From positions 20,135-84,134 of the forward strand of contig JAKLIG010000001.1 in assembly GCA_022709735.1 (NCBI GenBank): a DNA stretch of 64,000 nucleotides, given 5' to 3'. Shown here in pieces: positions 12,762-50,632 of the stretch. The notes under the pieces are model-generated. The model did no database searches, was not told where the DNA came from, and saw only the letters and a program-made list of their open reading frames with translations. Numbering within the stretch: the first letter of the stretch is position 1; each line of letters begins with the position of its first letter. Source of the DNA: Patescibacteria group bacterium (GTDB lineage: Bacteria > Patescibacteriota > Minisyncoccia > Moranbacterales > UBA2206). A program made the translations under genes and the position numbers.

Positions 12762-13562
12762 ATGCTCATTATCTTTTTCATCCTTGGCCTTATTATCGGA
12801 AGTTTTTTGAATGTTTTGGCGTATCGGCTTCACACGGCCGAAGAGTTGTTTTTAGATCGCTCGCATTGCCCGCATTGCAAAAAACAAATCCGCTGGTATG
12901 ACAATATTCCGGTCATTAGTTTTATTCTTCTGAAATCCCGCTGTCGAGACTGCAAAGAAAAAATTTCTTGGCAATATCCAATCGTCGAAATTTTTACCGG
13001 CGTGATTTTCGCGCTGATTAGCTGGAAGTTTTTTGTTTTGACTGACAGCGCTTCTTGGATTTCTACCGCCTATTTTCTATTTGCTTCCAGCGCGCTCATC
13101 ACAATTTTAGTCTACGATTTTCTTTATATGGAAATTCCGGGATCAGTTCTTTGGACGGGAATTTTTGTTTCCATCGCGTTTGTATTGTTTTCCCAAGGCT
13201 CAACCTTGGGAAATCCCAAGGTTGAGCCTTGGGCAGGGGATGTTTATTCCAGTGTTCTGGCGGCTTTTTTAGCTTTTGTTTTTTTCTTTCTGCTTTCAGT
13301 TGGTTCAAAAGAAAAATGGATGGGCATGGGGGATGCCTATCTTGTCATTTTCCTCGGGTTAATTTTGGGTTTTCCGGAAATTCTTCTCGCGCTTTTTTTA
13401 GCCTTCTTTTTTGGGGCAGTTTATGGTATAATAATGCTGGCCCTAAAAAAGAAAAAGATGAAAAGTCAAGTGCCTTTTGCGCCGTTTTTAGTGCTTGGAA
13501 CATTCGTGGCTCTGCTTTTTTACACGCCAATAATAGATTGGTATTTCTCTTTATTTTATTAA
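12762..13562 (+). CDS. pilD: Prepilin peptidase PilD (A24 family leader peptidase/N-methyltransferase)
   Basis: CPHCKKQI...CRDCKEKI zinc tetracysteine between TM1 and TM2. 8 TM. Conserved Asp in GMGDAYLV. Confidence 0.85.
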   Translation: MLIIFFILGLIIGSFLNVLAYRLHTAEELFLDRSHCPHCKKQIRWYDNIPVISFILLKSRCRDCKEKISWQYPIVEIFTGVIFALISWKFFVLTDSASWISTAYFLFASSALITILVYDFLYMEIPGSVLWTGIFVSIAFVLFSQGSTLGNPKVEPWAGDVYSSVLAAFLAFVFFFLLSVGSKEKWMGMGDAYLVIFLGLILGFPEILLALFLAFFFGAVYGIIMLALKKKKMKSQVPFAPFLVLGTFVALLFYTPIIDWYFSLFY

Positions 13563-21219: not shown

Positions 21220-21248
21220 TTGACAGTCGATATTTATATAGTTAGAAT
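21220..21248 (+). promoter_or_regulatory. Consensus sigma-70-type promoter (TTGACA-17 bp-TAGAAT) driving the tRNA cluster
   Basis: ttgaca gtcgatatttatatagt tagaat. Identical hexamers and spacing to the rRNA promoter at 38005. Confidence 0.55.
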
Positions 21249-21288
21249 GTTTAGTAGCGTCTGATTTAGACGATATTTTGAAATTATA

Positions 21289-21373
21289 GCGGGGTAGTCC
21301 CGCTATGGCGGGACGGGTGGCTCACCTGCCTGCCGGCAGGCAGGTAATCCCAGGTCGTGGGTTCAAATCAAAA
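21289..21373 (+). pseudogene. Degenerate tRNA-Met-like copy: D-arm replaced by hairpin GTCCCGC-tatg-GCGGGAC, anticodon loop replaced by the perfect 20-bp palindrome, 3' acceptor missing
   Basis: GCGGGGTAG|tcccgctatggcgggac|GGGTGGCTCA|cctgcctgccggcaggcagg|taaTCCCAGGTCGTGGGTTCAAATCa aligns segment by segment to the intact tRNA-Met at 21626-21697. Confidence 0.45.
21325..21344. repeat. Perfect 20-bp palindrome cctgcctgccggcaggcagg (copy 2 of 3)
   Basis: Self-complementary. Identical copy at 49669-49688, imperfect copy at 1935-1954. Confidence 0.85.
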
Positions 21374-21386
21374 AAACATAAATTTT

Positions 21387-21662
21387 ATGTATGTGATATA
21401 CGCTTTATTTTTTAAAAATATAAAAAGAGTGTATGTTGGGATGACTAGTAAATATAATCAAAGAATGGAAGAACATAAAAAAGGCAAAACACGCTCAACG
21501 AAAAATAGAGGAGAATTTATATCAAAAATAATTGAGAAATGCGAAACAAGAAGAGAGGCGAGATTAAGGGAAAAATATTGGAAATCTGGTTGTGGAAAGG
21601 AAGAATTAAAAAAGAAATATTATAGCGGGGTAGAGCAGTCTGGTAGCTCGGGTGGCTCATAA
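21387..21662 (+). CDS. Small GIY-YIG nuclease-domain protein (YhbQ/UPF0213-like). 3' end of the ORF runs into tRNA-Met.
   Basis: MYVIYALFFKNIKRVYVGMTSKYNQRMEEHKKGK...RREARLREKYWKS matches the GIY-(10-11)-YVG...R..EH..G...E pattern. The frame continues 37 nt into the tRNA before a stop, so the true C-terminus is uncertain. Confidence 0.65.
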   Translation: MYVIYALFFKNIKRVYVGMTSKYNQRMEEHKKGKTRSTKNRGEFISKIIEKCETRREARLREKYWKSGCGKEELKKKYYSGVEQSGSSGGS

Positions 21663-21697
21663 CCACCAGGTCGTGGGTTCAAATCCCACCCCCGCAA
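21626..21697 (+). tRNA. tRNA with CAU anticodon (elongator Met or Ile2/lysidine type)
   Basis: GCGGGGTAGAGCAGTCTGGTAGCTCGGGTGGCTCATAACCACCAGGTCGTGGGTTCAAATCCCACCCCCGCA. Confidence 0.85.
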
Positions 21698-21714
21698 CAA
21701 TTTGTCTTCTTAAG

Positions 21715-21902
21715 GCAGGGTAGCTCAGACTTGTCCCCCACCAAAATGCCGGCGTAGCTCAGTTGGTTAGAGCGTGGGACTCATAAGCCCAAGGTCAGTG
21801 GTTCAACTCCACTCGCCGGTACCAGGCATTTTGGTGGGGGATGAAGTTAGAGCACAGCCTTCATAAGGCTGGGGTCGTGGGTCCGAGTCCCACCCCTGCT
21901 AC
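21715..21902 (+). tRNA. Candidate split/nested tRNA (anticodon CAU). Its D-loop carries a 111-nt insertion that is a complete tRNA flanked by a perfect 17-bp inverted repeat.
   Basis: 5' part GGCAGGG-TA-GCTCAG, 3' part GTTAGAGC-A-CAGCC-TTCATAA-GGCTG-GGGTC-GTGGG-TCCGAGT-CCCAC-CCCTGCT-A. The acceptor halves pair (G1-U72 wobble). The D-stem GCTC/GAGC is separated by tcccccaccaaaatgcc-[inner tRNA]-ggcattttggtggggga. Confidence 0.45.
21749..21825 (+). tRNA. tRNA-fMet-like (anticodon CAU, GGG/CCC in anticodon stem), CCA encoded; nested inside the preceding tRNA
   Basis: GCCGGCG-TA-GCTCAGTTGGTTAGAGC-G-TGGGA-CTCATAA-GCCCA-AGGTC-AGTGGTTCAACTCCACT-CGCCGGT-A-CCA. Three consecutive G:C pairs in the anticodon stem are an initiator hallmark. 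Confidence 0.8.
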
Positions 21903-21917
21903 AAAATTTTTAAAATG

Positions 21918-21991
21918 GGGGCGTAGCTCAGTTGGTTAGAGCGACTGCCTGTCACGCAGTAGGTCACCGGTTCGAGTCCGGCCGTCCCCGC
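21918..21991 (+). tRNA. tRNA-Asp (anticodon GUC)
   Basis: GGGGGCG-TA-GCTCAGTTGGTTAGAGC-G-ACTGC-CTGTCAC-GCAGT-AGGTC-ACCGGTTCGAGTCCGGC-CGTCCCC-G. Confidence 0.85.
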
Positions 21992-22138
21992 AAAATTTGC
22001 CTTGCTAAAGGCATTTTTTTATGGTTTTTGAACTTGCTAAAAACTTGCAAAAGCACTATAATTATAAAGTAAGAAATAAACACGGATAATTGATCTGGAT
22101 GTTTATTTTTTGAAAATAGCCCAATAAATTAATTTAAC

Positions 22139-38033: not shown

Positions 38034-38457
38034 AATTTCACGTGCTAAATTCATAATTTGTTAAGTCAAATAATGATAATTTCAATACAATTTATAAAAA
38101 AGAAAAGCGGGTGATTCTTTAGTTTTAATTTTGTTTTGAAACCCCGCTCTCAAGCGGTTTTTTGTTTCTTAAAATGGTAAAAAATATTGGCGCTGAAATA
38201 ATTTCTGCAAATAAAATTGTGAAAAATATTTTCCGCGTCAAAGCTGAACTTTGACAACTGAATAGGTCTTAATCGCAAGTTTAATTTTATAATGTTGGCG
38301 GAAATAGAAATTAAATTTGACGATTAGTCACTCAATATTTTAAGCAATAAATATTGAGTTTTGTAGGTAAAATCCCGCCAAGGCGGGATAAAATGCAATA
38401 AGAGAAAATTAAAATAGTTAGCAATATTTATTTAGTAATTGCTAACTGCTAACAACA

Positions 38458-41668
<3,211 letters not shown>

Positions 41669-41817
41669 TTATCTCTCTTGATTCAACTGACAACTCATAA
41701 CTGACAACTTGCAACTTAATTGTTGTTTGTTGAAAGTTGAGAGTTGAAAGTTGATATAGTTAGCAGTTAGAAATTACTAAATTAGCATTTTTTAAAGTTA
41801 GTTAAGAGAGCATTATT

Positions 41818-49504: not shown

Positions 49505-50632
49505 ATGAAAATTGGCATTGATGGCTCGCGAGCCTTCCTAAAACAAAGAACGGGCATTGAAGAATATTCCTATCAGGTAATAAAGCACTTGAGAGAAAAA
49601 TTAAAAACATCTCAAGTTGTTTTGTATTTGCGAAAAAATCAGGAAGTTGATTTTGAATTGCCGGAAAACCTGCCTGCCGGCAGGCAGGGTTGGAAAATCA
49701 AAATAATAAAATGGCCGAGATTTTGGACGCAAATCGGACTATCTTTTGAATTATTTTTTCATCCAGTTGATGTGCTATTCATCCCGGCCCATATATTGCC
49801 ACTATATCATCCGAAGAAATCAATAGTTACTATTCATGGCTTGGAATTTGAGGTTACAAAAGAAGCCTATTCTTTTTGGGAGAAAATATATATGCATCTT
49901 TCGATAAAAAAATCCTGTTTTTGGGCGAGCAAAGTTATCGCGGTTTCAAAAAATACAAAAGAAGACCTGATTGAATTTTATAAAGTACCAGAAAAAAAGA
50001 TCGAGGTGATATATGAAGGAGTATCAACTTGTCATGCCGAACTCGTTTCGGCATCTCATAAGATCCTGAAACAAGTTCAGGATGACAATGCCAAATACCT
50101 ATTATTTATTGGTCGATTAGAAAAACGAAAAAATGTTGAAGGCATAATTGAAGCATATAAAATTTTAAAAGAAAAATATAATATACCTCACAGTTTAGTA
50201 TTGGTTGGTTCGCCTGGATATGGATATGAAAGTATAAAATTGAAAATTGAGAATTGTTTGAAAATTGAAAATTGTAAATTGAAAATTATAGAGCTTGGTT
50301 ATATTGAAGAAGCAGTCAAGTGGCAATTATTGCATGATGCTGATGTATTCTTATTCCCATCATTCTATGAAGGTTTTGGTTTGCCGATTTTGGAAGCGCA
50401 AGTGCAAGGTGTTCCGGTTGTCACTTCCAATGTTTCTTCGCTTCCGGAAATCGGCGGAGACAGCGTGGCCTACTGCACACCCGGAGAACCAATAAGTATC
50501 GCTGATTCGACCTATAAGATTTTAAGCGACGAAAATTTTAGAAATGGTATAATAAAAAAGGGTTATGAAAATGTAAAAAAATTCAGTTGGGATAAGTGTG
50601 CGGAAGAAATCGCTAAATTATTAATAAATTGA
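49505..50632 (+). CDS. Glycosyltransferase family 4 (GT1-fold, RfaG-like) with two in-frame repeat-derived insertions
   Basis: C-terminal GT4 block FLFPSFYEGFGLPILEAQVQGVPVVTS. Contains the 20-bp palindrome (49669-49688, encodes LPAGRQG) and a TTGAAAATTG repeat stretch (50238-50288, encodes KLKIENCLKIENCKLKI). Confidence 0.85.
   Translation: MKIGIDGSRAFLKQRTGIEEYSYQVIKHLREKLKTSQVVLYLRKNQEVDFELPENLPAGRQGWKIKIIKWPRFWTQIGLSFELFFHPVDVLFIPAHILPLYHPKKSIVTIHGLEFEVTKEAYSFWEKIYMHLSIKKSCFWASKVIAVSKNTKEDLIEFYKVPEKKIEVIYEGVSTCHAELVSASHKILKQVQDDNAKYLLFIGRLEKRKNVEGIIEAYKILKEKYNIPHSLVLVGSPGYGYESIKLKIENCLKIENCKLKIIELGYIEEAVKWQLLHDADVFLFPSFYEGFGLPILEAQVQGVPVVTSNVSSLPEIGGDSVAYCTPGEPISIADSTYKILSDENFRNGIIKKGYENVKKFSWDKCAEEIAKLLIN
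49669..49688. repeat. Perfect 20-bp palindrome cctgcctgccggcaggcagg (copy 3), in-frame within the GT4 CDS
   Basis: Identical to 21325-21344. Confidence 0.85.
50238..50288. repeat. ATTGAAA mini-repeat stretch in-frame within the GT4 CDS
   Basis: ttgaaaattgagaattgtttgaaaattgaaaattgtaaattgaaaatt. Confidence 0.65.

Follow-up and report, generated by a model that had tools for sequence, protein, structure and literature searches.

A minimal GIY-YIG nuclease gene between a dead and an intact tRNA copy: a candidate homing-type cassette in a Moranbacteria genome

The stretch of DNA analysed here (hereafter the window) comprises 64,000 nucleotides (nt) of contig JAKLIG010000001.1, from a Moranbacteria genome of the Candidate Phyla Radiation (CPR), and its G+C content of 34-40% across most of its length is that of an AT-rich genome. 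Source annotations assign the neighbouring proteins to Candidatus Moranbacteria. The subject of this work is a tRNA operon in which a small open reading frame (ORF) of the GIY-YIG nuclease superfamily lies between a dead partial copy of a tRNA-fMet gene, called psi in the following, and an intact copy of the same gene, and in which psi is interrupted by a perfect palindrome of 20 bp (PAL). Between a promoter and a terminator, the operon runs in the order leader hairpin, psi, spacer, ORF, tRNA-Met, composite tRNA and tRNA-Asp. A first-pass annotation, made from the letters alone, had proposed a promoter, a degenerate tRNA-Met copy with two palindromes, a GIY-YIG mini-gene and an intact tRNA-Met at this place, and all of these elements are present within 1-2 nt of where it had put them, the promoter TTGACA-17-TAGAAT included. 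The features of the operon are given below, where L116 stands for a related Moranbacteria locus that lacks the cassette.

21220-21248, + strand: sigma-70-type promoter TTGACA-17-TAGAAT, native to the tRNA operon; 11 of 12 consensus positions match, and it aligns with the L116 promoter
21258-21272, + strand: leader hairpin CGTCTG-att-TAGACG, part of the native tRNA leader (L116 equivalent: CGTCTA-gtt-TAGGCG)
21288-21369, + strand: psi, the dead 5′ copy of tRNA-fMet (nt 1-61), by block alignment to 21624-21698
21297-21314, no strand: GC hairpin GTCCCGC-tatg-GCGGGAC in the D arm of psi, of a second dispersed hairpin family
21325-21344, no strand: PAL, the 20-bp perfect palindrome CCTGCCTGCCGGCAGGCAGG, between nt 35 and 36 of psi; family hallmark
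21370-21386, + strand: 17-nt spacer, the 5′ untranslated region of the nuclease gene
21387-21662, + strand: minimal GIY-YIG nuclease gene of 91 codons, with the conserved core at 21387-21623 (79 codons)
21624-21698, + strand: intact tRNA-Met(CAT), the restored functional copy (ARAGORN; Rfam, 62 bits)
21714-21903, + strand: outer CAT tRNA with a stem in its D loop that is capped by an inner tRNA-Met; same operon
21917-21991, + strand: tRNA-Asp, the last gene of the operon
21998-22020, + strand: intrinsic terminator of the operon, with U-tract

A promoter scan finds the next promoter-like site after 21220-21248 not before 22034 and, besides the one U-tract terminator downstream of the tRNA genes (21998-22013), a single terminator-like match, the short leader hairpin at 21258-21272. 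The native promoter is predicted to drive now the dead copy and the ORF along with the tRNAs. The intact tRNA-Met shows an A1.A72 mismatch atop its acceptor stem, which is the usual mark of a bacterial initiator tRNA, and is probably the initiator. At the gathering score, the only Rfam families between 21100 and 22150 are tRNAs, all other matches there being sub-threshold and at chance level, and the same scan over the whole window returns rRNAs and tRNAs, with no Intron_gpI. Likewise, no further GIY-YIG copy was found elsewhere in the 64-kb window.

The similarity of the tRNA-like fragment to the intact gene, first proposed by eye, is borne out by a computed MAFFT alignment, in which 21285-21385 aligns to the intact tRNA-Met in three colinear blocks. 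The first, ATTATAGCGGGGTAG, is identical to the intact tRNA region at 15/15 nt, 5 leader nt included; the second, CGGGTGGCTCA, is identical at 11/11 nt; and the third, TAATCCCAGGTCGTGGGTTCAAATC, is identical over its final 17 nt (GGTCGTGGGTTCAAATC, 17/17). In the D arm, 15 nt are swapped for the 16-nt core of GTCCCGC-tatg-GCGGGAC, a true replacement as had been described. The anticodon loop does carry a perfect palindrome of 20 bp, the supposed replacement being instead a clean insertion between nt 35 and 36 (CTCA-PAL-TAA) with 0 nt deleted and 0 duplicated. The copy stops at nt 61, in the T loop, so that the 3′ acceptor strand is missing, again as first read. PAL occurs 3 times in the window against 0 times in 100 shuffled sequences, and the architecture of psi plus cassette is repeated at dozens of independent loci, which together argue that the arrangement is not a product of chance. 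It was also rejected that the two palindromes of psi are unique local events, since PAL is dispersed and family-wide and the D-arm hairpin belongs to a second family. Members of this second family, (A/G)TCCCGCCAAGGCGGGA(T/C), are found at 21297-21314, at 38372-38389 (directly upstream of the 23S rRNA gene), and in loci L003 and L017, in the latter between repeated 3′ fragments of tRNA-Asp. The psi D-arm hairpin occurs as an exact 18-mer a single time in the window.

The product of the ORF matches the Pfam family GIY-YIG (PF01541) with 46.7 bits (cut-off 22.6, E = 4e-12). Its closest solved relatives are the UPF0213 (YhbQ-like) proteins BH0048 and EF2693 (PDB 1zg2, E = 1.4e-6, and 1ywl, E = 6e-5, over profile positions 2-74), which are stand-alone GIY-YIG domains of the same size and similar to the cassette protein over its whole length. 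Judged by these Pfam and PDB sequence matches, the GIY-YIG fold is settled. To our knowledge, no function has been established for BH0048 and EF2693, and we know of no report that places them in a tRNA or palindrome context. Across 33 homologues, residues Y5, Y16, G18, R26, H30 and E62 show either no variation or a conservation of at least 90%; from what is known of the family, we take the GIY/YIG tyrosines, the Arg, the His and the metal-binding Glu to have catalytic roles. Other matches are a weak overlapping one to T5orf172, below its own cut-off, a weak one to a PHROG 'homing endonuclease' family (E = 1e-4) and a sub-threshold one to TIGR01453. The collection clustered at 90% holds 77 close relatives of the protein, and at 50% identity (E ≤ 1e-3) the family extends to 927 clusters, nearly all of 77-140 residues. 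As the first-pass annotation had noted, the frame of this YhbQ-like ORF runs into the tRNA gene: the tRNA gene supplies the final 12 codons together with the stop (39 nt in all), the stop being the UAA of the anticodon loop, which serves as the stop in 12/12 tRNA-fMet loci. Many relatives share a tRNA-encoded C-terminal tail, ...SGVEQSGSSGGS or ...IAGWSNGSSRGS, and at the other end the called frame takes in PAL, as LPAGRQ, PACRQA or CLPAGR, in 25 of 59 family proteins that are N-terminally over-called.

Empty sites in related genomes were sought through homologues of the 179-residue protein encoded upstream of the operon and the contigs that carry them, and were found at L116/L117, L118/L119 and L120/L121, where this protein is 74%, 71% and 66% identical, respectively. 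The L116/L117 loci, from Moranbacteria, keep the gene order of the window (179-aa gene, tRNA cluster, 123-aa gene, gyrB). At all these loci, a promoter of the TTGACA...TAGAAT type leads into one intact tRNA-fMet, and psi, PAL and the GIY-YIG gene are all absent from the site. The promoter and leader of L116 align base for base with those that precede psi in the window. At the left junction, the alignment of the window with L116 spans promoter through T loop, and at the right junction it begins at nt -5 and reaches the 3′ flank. Because the same promoter and leader run into a single intact tRNA in L116, psi occupies the native position of the gene, and about 335 bp have been inserted. By this comparison, the inserted DNA of about 335 bp consists of the spacer, the ORF and a fresh 5′ part of the tRNA, in addition to the 20-nt PAL inside the old copy; a cassette thus appears to have interrupted the initiator tRNA gene in this Moranbacteria (CPR) genome and to have duplicated part of it. 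The earlier proposal of a mobile cassette that targets a tRNA and has duplicated the target's 5′ part is therefore supported by both the empty sites and the tRNA-linked homologous loci described below. Other genes were seen in the same cluster of the relatives: a 219-aa LAGLIDADG protein lies between the second CAT tRNA and tRNA-Asp in L116 (3276-3935), and a 225-aa helix-turn-helix protein follows tRNA-fMet in L118 (3229-3906). This tRNA cluster gives the impression of being a hot spot of selfish genes.

With one genome scanned per species, 275 loci of the family were confirmed; 80 of these were fetched and, with the window, make up the 81 loci analysed here. A same-strand tRNA lies within 160 nt of the ORF in 74 of them, after it ('down') in 51 and before it ('up') in 23, and a partial copy of the same tRNA is found on the other side of the ORF in 65 of the 81 (psi score of at least 40). 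The ORF is thus not one that sits at unrelated loci devoid of tRNA fragments. The 74 loci involve 14 anticodon species (Leu-CAA/TAA/GAG, Met, Arg-CCT/CCG/ACG, Asn, Asp, Val, Ile, Glu and Ser-GGA/GCT), and the three-part design adjoins at least 19 tRNA species, distributed over several phyla of bacteria; the hosts comprise CPR groups, Flavobacteriia and other Bacteroidota, WOR-3, Stahlbacteria and others. In 'down' loci the 5′ part of the tRNA is retained as psi, and in 'up' loci the 3′ part. A duplication of the 5′ side thus describes the window correctly (nt 1-61), and the family less so, as it is one of two configurations, with 23 of the 74 loci showing the intact tRNA upstream and a 3′ copy downstream. 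The ORF-distal end of psi is complete and matches the intact tRNA, whereas its ORF-proximal end is truncated to a variable extent, and both truncation and decay differ from locus to locus. The stop codon of the ORF falls inside the tRNA, or at most 5 nt from its first base, in 36 of the 51 'down' loci. Every locus inspected has a single GIY-YIG ORF between psi and tRNA in an insert of about 0.3 kb, and no recombinase is found between them at the inspected loci, the 23 of the 'up' type with 3′ duplication included. From these comparisons, the family can be described by three invariant parts: a GIY-YIG gene of about 80 codons, a complete tRNA flush with or overlapping one end of it, and a PAL-bearing partial copy at the opposite end. 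The case for a mobile cassette is stronger than the first-pass annotation had made it, because the palindrome ties the locus to a family that crosses phyla. No description of this triad of nuclease, PAL and dead tRNA was found in the full-text literature, a coverage that leaves out most subscription journals, where an earlier description may exist.

The placement of PAL was followed in the 81 loci by matching it near the ORFs, with up to 4 edits allowed and within 200 nt. PAL lies within this distance of the ORF in 59 loci, either 16-66 nt upstream or 19-75 nt downstream, and near the ORF it is about 36 times as dense as in the distal flanks. Insertion sites were then defined by mapping each psi onto the intact tRNA of its own locus and counting hairpins of at least 14 nt. 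Nearly every locus shows a clean hairpin insertion, usually the 20-nt PAL or a variant of 16-20 nt. The D region (nt 8-26) received 54 insertions, mostly at the D-loop/D-stem junction between nt 21 and 22 (TA/GAGC, GA/CGCG, TA/GAAC); the T region received 15, mostly at the T-stem/T-loop junction between nt 53 and 54 (GGG/TTCGA) and in the 'up' type only; and the anticodon loop received 8, between nt 35 and 36 (CTCA/TAAC) and in tRNA-fMet only. Additional PALs follow nt 8-9, nt 15-16 and nt 58, and several of them may sit in one psi (L028, L036, L055, L071, L076, L052). None of the mapped sites lies within a helix. A target-site duplication around PAL was considered and discarded, as the mapping on the intact tRNA leaves 0 duplicated and 0 deleted bases; direct repeats beside solo PALs in viral contigs resemble local low-complexity sequence. 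PAL is a conserved hallmark of the family at precise tRNA positions and no random insertion.

A second sample was led by the DNA and not by the protein, using the exact junction TA+PAL+GAGC in metagenome contigs, which gave at least 120 stretches, 86 instances of which were analysed. Among the matches listed, 70 of the 86 junctions have an intact same-strand tRNA 1-400 nt downstream (18 identified anticodon species), and 35 have a same-strand ORF of the family within 150 nt. In 32 of the listed junctions the ORF starts 11-80 nt past PAL and the tRNA stands at +237 to +357, and in 3 the ORF is directly upstream; in the 43 listed junctions that have no ORF, the tRNA mostly begins 10-115 nt past PAL. 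PAL has also been met in a place where it interrupts no dead copy: two viral contigs (L105, 2239-2330, and L082, near 8616) carry a full-length tRNA-fMet-like gene with PAL in its variable loop (GAGG-PAL-TCG), which ARAGORN still calls as a 92-nt tRNA-Met, and where PAL might be tolerated as a long variable arm.

Some loci preserve signs of movement and amplification. In L014, nt 1-53 of the host tRNA are followed by three units, each made of nt 54-76, a first terminator, the ORF, psi nt 47-53 and PAL, and then by nt 54-76 of the host with a different, second terminator, which makes the flank of the element distinguishable from that of the host and indicates that PAL marks the junction with displaced host DNA. 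In L168, the two dead copies, both PAL-bearing, share a 1-nt deletion that is missing from the intact copy, which means that one was copied from the other. L188, L173 and L042 likewise hold tandem arrays, made of PAL-bearing units and ending in one intact tRNA. At the level of sequence, these arrays show that PAL-bearing units are copied and amplified in tandem. The protein clades track the insertion site and side of the element, yet within the CPR clade, elements of tRNA-Asp and tRNA-Val, with PAL of the D type, are nested among those of tRNA-fMet, where PAL sits between nt 35 and 36. Proteins that are 45-70% identical across several phyla imply, in turn, horizontal spread.

The nearest experimental precedent, by analogy, is SegB, which Brok-Volchanskaya et al. 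reportedly described in 2008 as a free-standing GIY-YIG homing endonuclease. This enzyme of the tRNA cluster of T4/T6 phages cuts tRNA genes at a T-loop-like motif, RAWTSGAAC, and its breaks drive UvsX/UvsY-dependent tandem amplification of units of tRNA plus segB, with the junction at the 5′ end of the tRNA (PMC13096335). The cassette shares with SegB the GIY-YIG domain, a gene placed among tRNA genes and tandem units of tRNA and nuclease. On the other hand, SegB is phage-borne and has about 220 residues with a DNA-binding domain, whereas the cassette protein is encoded on cellular chromosomes and amounts to a core of about 79 residues; SegB is also accompanied by neither a conserved palindrome nor a systematic dead tRNA copy. 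The same holds for free-standing homing endonuclease genes of the Seg-like kind: the presence/absence polymorphism at one site is shared, whereas a separate DNA-binding domain was not found in the cassette protein.

On these grounds, we slightly favour the reading of the region as a homing-type selfish cassette of about 335 bp that uses the tRNA both as target and as homology, and that restores the gene by partial duplication. In a first step, as suggested by the architecture and by the SegB precedent, the nuclease would break PAL-free tRNA genes at or near the conserved junctions. Repair would then copy from a PAL-bearing template, the homology being the tRNA's own sequence, which is conserved between species and, for the D-arm and T-arm boxes, even between tRNA species. 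The products would be a PAL-interrupted copy that is neither target nor tRNA, the nuclease gene and a restored complete tRNA, so that the partial duplication would take the role that self-splicing has for intron-borne endonucleases. PAL itself would act as target disruptor and as a probable partner of the protein. Placed between the promoter and the tRNAs, the cassette would be transcribed with essential tRNAs and could not be silenced without silencing them. Moreover, since the ORF of the tRNA-fMet lineage ends only at the anticodon-loop UAA, processing by RNase P would leave a non-stop mRNA, which would hold nuclease levels low.

Such a scheme has a relative in collaborative or trans homing, in which a free-standing mobE gene lies beside an ORF-less intron that splits its target, as for I-TevIII (PMC2790892). 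Both systems have a nuclease gene beside an insertion located exactly in the presumed target and inherited together with it. In collaborative homing, however, the insertion is a self-splicing intron and the gene is single-copy, whereas PAL comes with no detected splicing apparatus and the rescue would depend on a second complete tRNA. A further case of collaborative homing is reportedly that of F-CphI in cyanophage psbA (Zeng, Bonocora and Shub, 2009). In the phylum Patescibacteria itself, group I introns are known at tRNA position 35/36, some of them with homing endonuclease genes (bioRxiv 10.1101/2025.07.03.662931). The phylum and the position are those of PAL in the tRNA-fMet lineage, but these introns are self-splicing ribozymes with HNH enzymes, and the same source makes no mention of GIY-YIG (bioRxiv 10.1101/2025.07.03.662931). 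A group I intron within the cassette was considered and rejected, since no Intron_gpI match appears between 21100 and 22150 even at E ≤ 1. A possible meeting of the two kinds of element is seen in L112 (500-1100), a contig classed as viral, where a D-type dead copy with PAL and a GIY-YIG gene are followed by a tRNA copy that is interrupted after about nt 34 and then by an HNH-like ORF, resembling the 35/36 group I introns of Patescibacteria.

Several observations weigh against the homing-type reading. Forms of psi, PAL and tRNA without ORF are as common as ORF-bearing ones (43 vs 35 of the 86 junctions listed), and solo PALs are also found in coding and high-GC viral sequence far from tRNAs. 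PAL hardly varies between elements even when their proteins share only about 45% identity, which fits poorly because a mere target disruptor needs no conserved sequence. The conserved form of PAL is, moreover, not that of a 10-bp stem: selection for such a hairpin was examined and rejected, as 0 of 26 PAL variants have a compensatory change in that register, and what PAL keeps is two shifted hairpin registers of 6 bp, in which 8 cells (1-6/11-16) and 5 cells (5-10/15-20) compensate. This suggests short hairpins in single-stranded nucleic acid as the conserved form. The protein consists of the 79-residue catalytic core and has no added DNA-binding domain. The intact tRNA beside the ORF retains the presumed target sequence, and self-immunity is left unexplained. 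Finally, the two psi arms that flank PAL both derive from the tRNA species of the locus, with its anticodon, so that a switch to a new tRNA species is no simple one-piece insertion; a one-piece insertion with PAL at the end of the element fits L014 and was discarded because it fails for the tRNA-fMet lineage and for the switches of tRNA species. Copying of PAL across the break, primed by the near-universal D-arm and T-arm boxes, would explain the local arms.

A bolder proposal, which we hold to be possible if on balance unlikely, is that PAL and the 79-residue GIY-YIG protein represent a new class of mobile DNA. Here, a 20-nt hairpin would enter loop/stem junctions of tRNAs without target duplication, guided by the cloverleaf or by the universal D-arm and T-arm boxes, and catalysed or triggered by the smallest nuclease known for an autonomous element. 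Partial gene duplication would be its built-in way of keeping an essential target alive, the autonomous unit would measure about 0.33 kb, and the ORF-less psi-PAL forms would be its non-autonomous members.

Among the alternatives to homing, the one that survives best, doubtful as we consider it, has PAL itself as the mobile entity, a hairpin transposon in the manner of repetitive extragenic palindromes (REP) with their RAYT genes or of the insertion sequences IS200/IS605. The protein would recognise the extruded PAL hairpin and cut its base, and hairpins would be pasted with a host ligase into the single-stranded loop/stem junctions of unwound, cloverleaf-folding tRNA genes; the nuclease gene would remain by one landing pad, and the tRNA duplications would be survivors of lethal hits. 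The likeness to REP/RAYT and IS200/IS605 lies in a short, GC-rich, dispersed hairpin tied to one small nuclease gene, in the lack of target duplication and in the many ORF-less copies. This alternative would account for the clean 20-nt insertion with neither target duplication nor deletion, for mapped sites that are all single-stranded in the cloverleaf (nt 8-9, 15-16, 21/22, 35/36, 53/54 and 58), for several PALs in one psi and for compensatory changes that preserve registers with 6-bp stems and 4-nt loops. It is also consistent with the abundance of ORF-less psi-PAL forms and of solo PALs outside tRNAs, with a conservation of PAL that exceeds that of the protein, and with closest solved relatives (UPF0213) that are catalytic domains without a DNA-binding module. 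However, REP/RAYT and IS200/IS605 systems employ HUH/Y1 transposases and the cassette ORF is GIY-YIG, a superfamily whose enzymes hydrolyse DNA with no covalent intermediate and for which we know of no strand-transfer chemistry. REPs are, besides, extragenic, are not aimed at tRNA loops and restore nothing by duplication. As for dispersed hairpins flanking the nuclease gene, 59 of 81 loci have PAL to one side of the ORF, and PAL is also present in solo copies. The alternative leaves unexplained the constant position of the ORF between psi and the intact copy and the contrast between a complete ORF-distal and a truncated proximal psi arm, and unrelated hairpins are present at the same 21/22 site (in the tRNA-Pro of the window and in L033).

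Less probable by far is that amplification is purely local, SegB-like breaks and unequal recombination giving tandem partial duplications, with PAL as an unrelated parasite and no horizontal homing. The SegB precedent, the tandem arrays and the local origin of both psi arms would all suit it, as would the fact that other hairpin families also occur in psi copies of CPR loci. Yet an independent parasite would not be expected as the same PAL at the same nt positions, and coupled with the ORF, across CPR, Flavobacteriia, WOR-3, Stahlbacteria and a viral contig. In 35 of 86 PAL-sampled junctions among the matches listed, moreover, an ORF lies within 150 nt, and hosts from several phyla with proteins 45-70% identical imply horizontal spread. 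A host function, with psi and its hairpins as a regulatory tRNA-like leader and the nuclease as a housekeeping factor of tRNA operons, seems very improbable: co-transcription from the tRNA promoter and the stable fold of the leader (z = -3.5) speak for it, and against it stand close relatives of identical synteny that miss the cassette, a tRNA partner and an ORF side that vary, psi copies truncated and degenerate to differing extents per locus, and the tandem arrays.

Larger islands and prophages borne by integrases are said, following Williams (2002), to integrate into tRNA genes. They resemble the cassette in lying inside a tRNA gene that a segment of the element restores, with a partial copy at the far end, and in their preference for the anticodon loop and the T loop; they differ from it in that the cassette has no recombinase, measures 0.3 kb and not tens of kb, duplicates either the 5′ or the 3′ part and marks the dead copy with a palindrome. 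That the locus is the relic attachment site of a larger, decayed island of this kind is hardly credible, for the classical signature of tRNA-gene insertion, gene restoration and leftover partial copy is accompanied by about 335 bp with one ORF at every locus examined across phyla, by no recombinase, and at the window locus by a duplicated 5′ and not 3′ part.

If the homing-type reading is true, it would give selfish nuclease genes a third mode of residence in an essential gene, beside self-splicing introns and inteins, one in which the element brings or generates a duplicate segment of the gene and one complete copy survives. It would also link a small, widespread and unexplained GIY-YIG family (927 clusters) to a genomic behaviour and to a candidate DNA partner, PAL. 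A small nuclease whose target, a palindrome or a tRNA box, is defined could be a possible tool, and the members from Flavobacteriia offer a tractable system for how free-standing endonucleases spare their own host copy. On the practical side, PAL-bearing dead copies and nested insertions confuse tRNA annotation, and read-through of PAL and tRNA yields spurious ORF extensions (LPAGRQ, ...GSSGGS tails), which is relevant to tRNA censuses in CPR bacteria, often reported short of tRNAs.

Beyond the operon, the window holds three features related to psi or PAL.

1935-1975, - strand: ORF-less relative of the cassette, a tRNA-Ser psi 5′ fragment (1954-1975) directly joined to a copy of PAL with 2 mismatches (1935-1954); tRNA-Ser(tga) lies about 45 nt downstream
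2668-2742, + strand: ORF-less relative, a 22-nt tRNA-Pro psi 5′ fragment broken at the D-loop/D-stem junction, upstream of the intact tRNA-Pro at 2758
49669-49688, no strand: solo exact PAL, in frame (LPAGRQG) within the family-4 glycosyltransferase ORF 49505-50632

The tRNA-Ser fragment with PAL, which has no nuclease ORF, is of the form that makes up half of the metagenome sample. The tRNA-Pro fragment is followed by two GC hairpins other than PAL, TCGCC-tcatc-GGCGA and ACCCGCC-gtaga-GGCGGGT, and other hairpin families therefore use the same site. As for the glycosyltransferase ORF, both of its Pfam domains are still matched despite the in-frame PAL, and two further short palindromes lie within it at about 50029-50085.

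The composite gene that follows the intact tRNA-Met is a nested arrangement of its own. In this third CAT tRNA (GGCAGGG...CCCTGCTA, 21714-21903), the D loop is interrupted by a stem of 21-22 bp with a perfect 17-bp inverted repeat (21734-21750 / 21825-21841), at the tip of which stands a complete inner tRNA-Met with encoded CCA (21748-21824), the whole folding as one cloverleaf set upon another (z = -6.4). In L001, L116 and L118 the outer CAT tRNA has no such interruption, and the interrupted form in the window may be a pseudogene or a processed split tRNA. Elsewhere in the window, a perfect palindrome of 42 nt, CCCAAGGCTCAACCTTGGGAAATCCCAAGGTTGAGCCTTGGG, lies at 13192-13233, and the 23S rRNA gene (38465-41678) measures 3214 nt against the 2925 positions of its Rfam model, which indicates insertions of about 290 nt.

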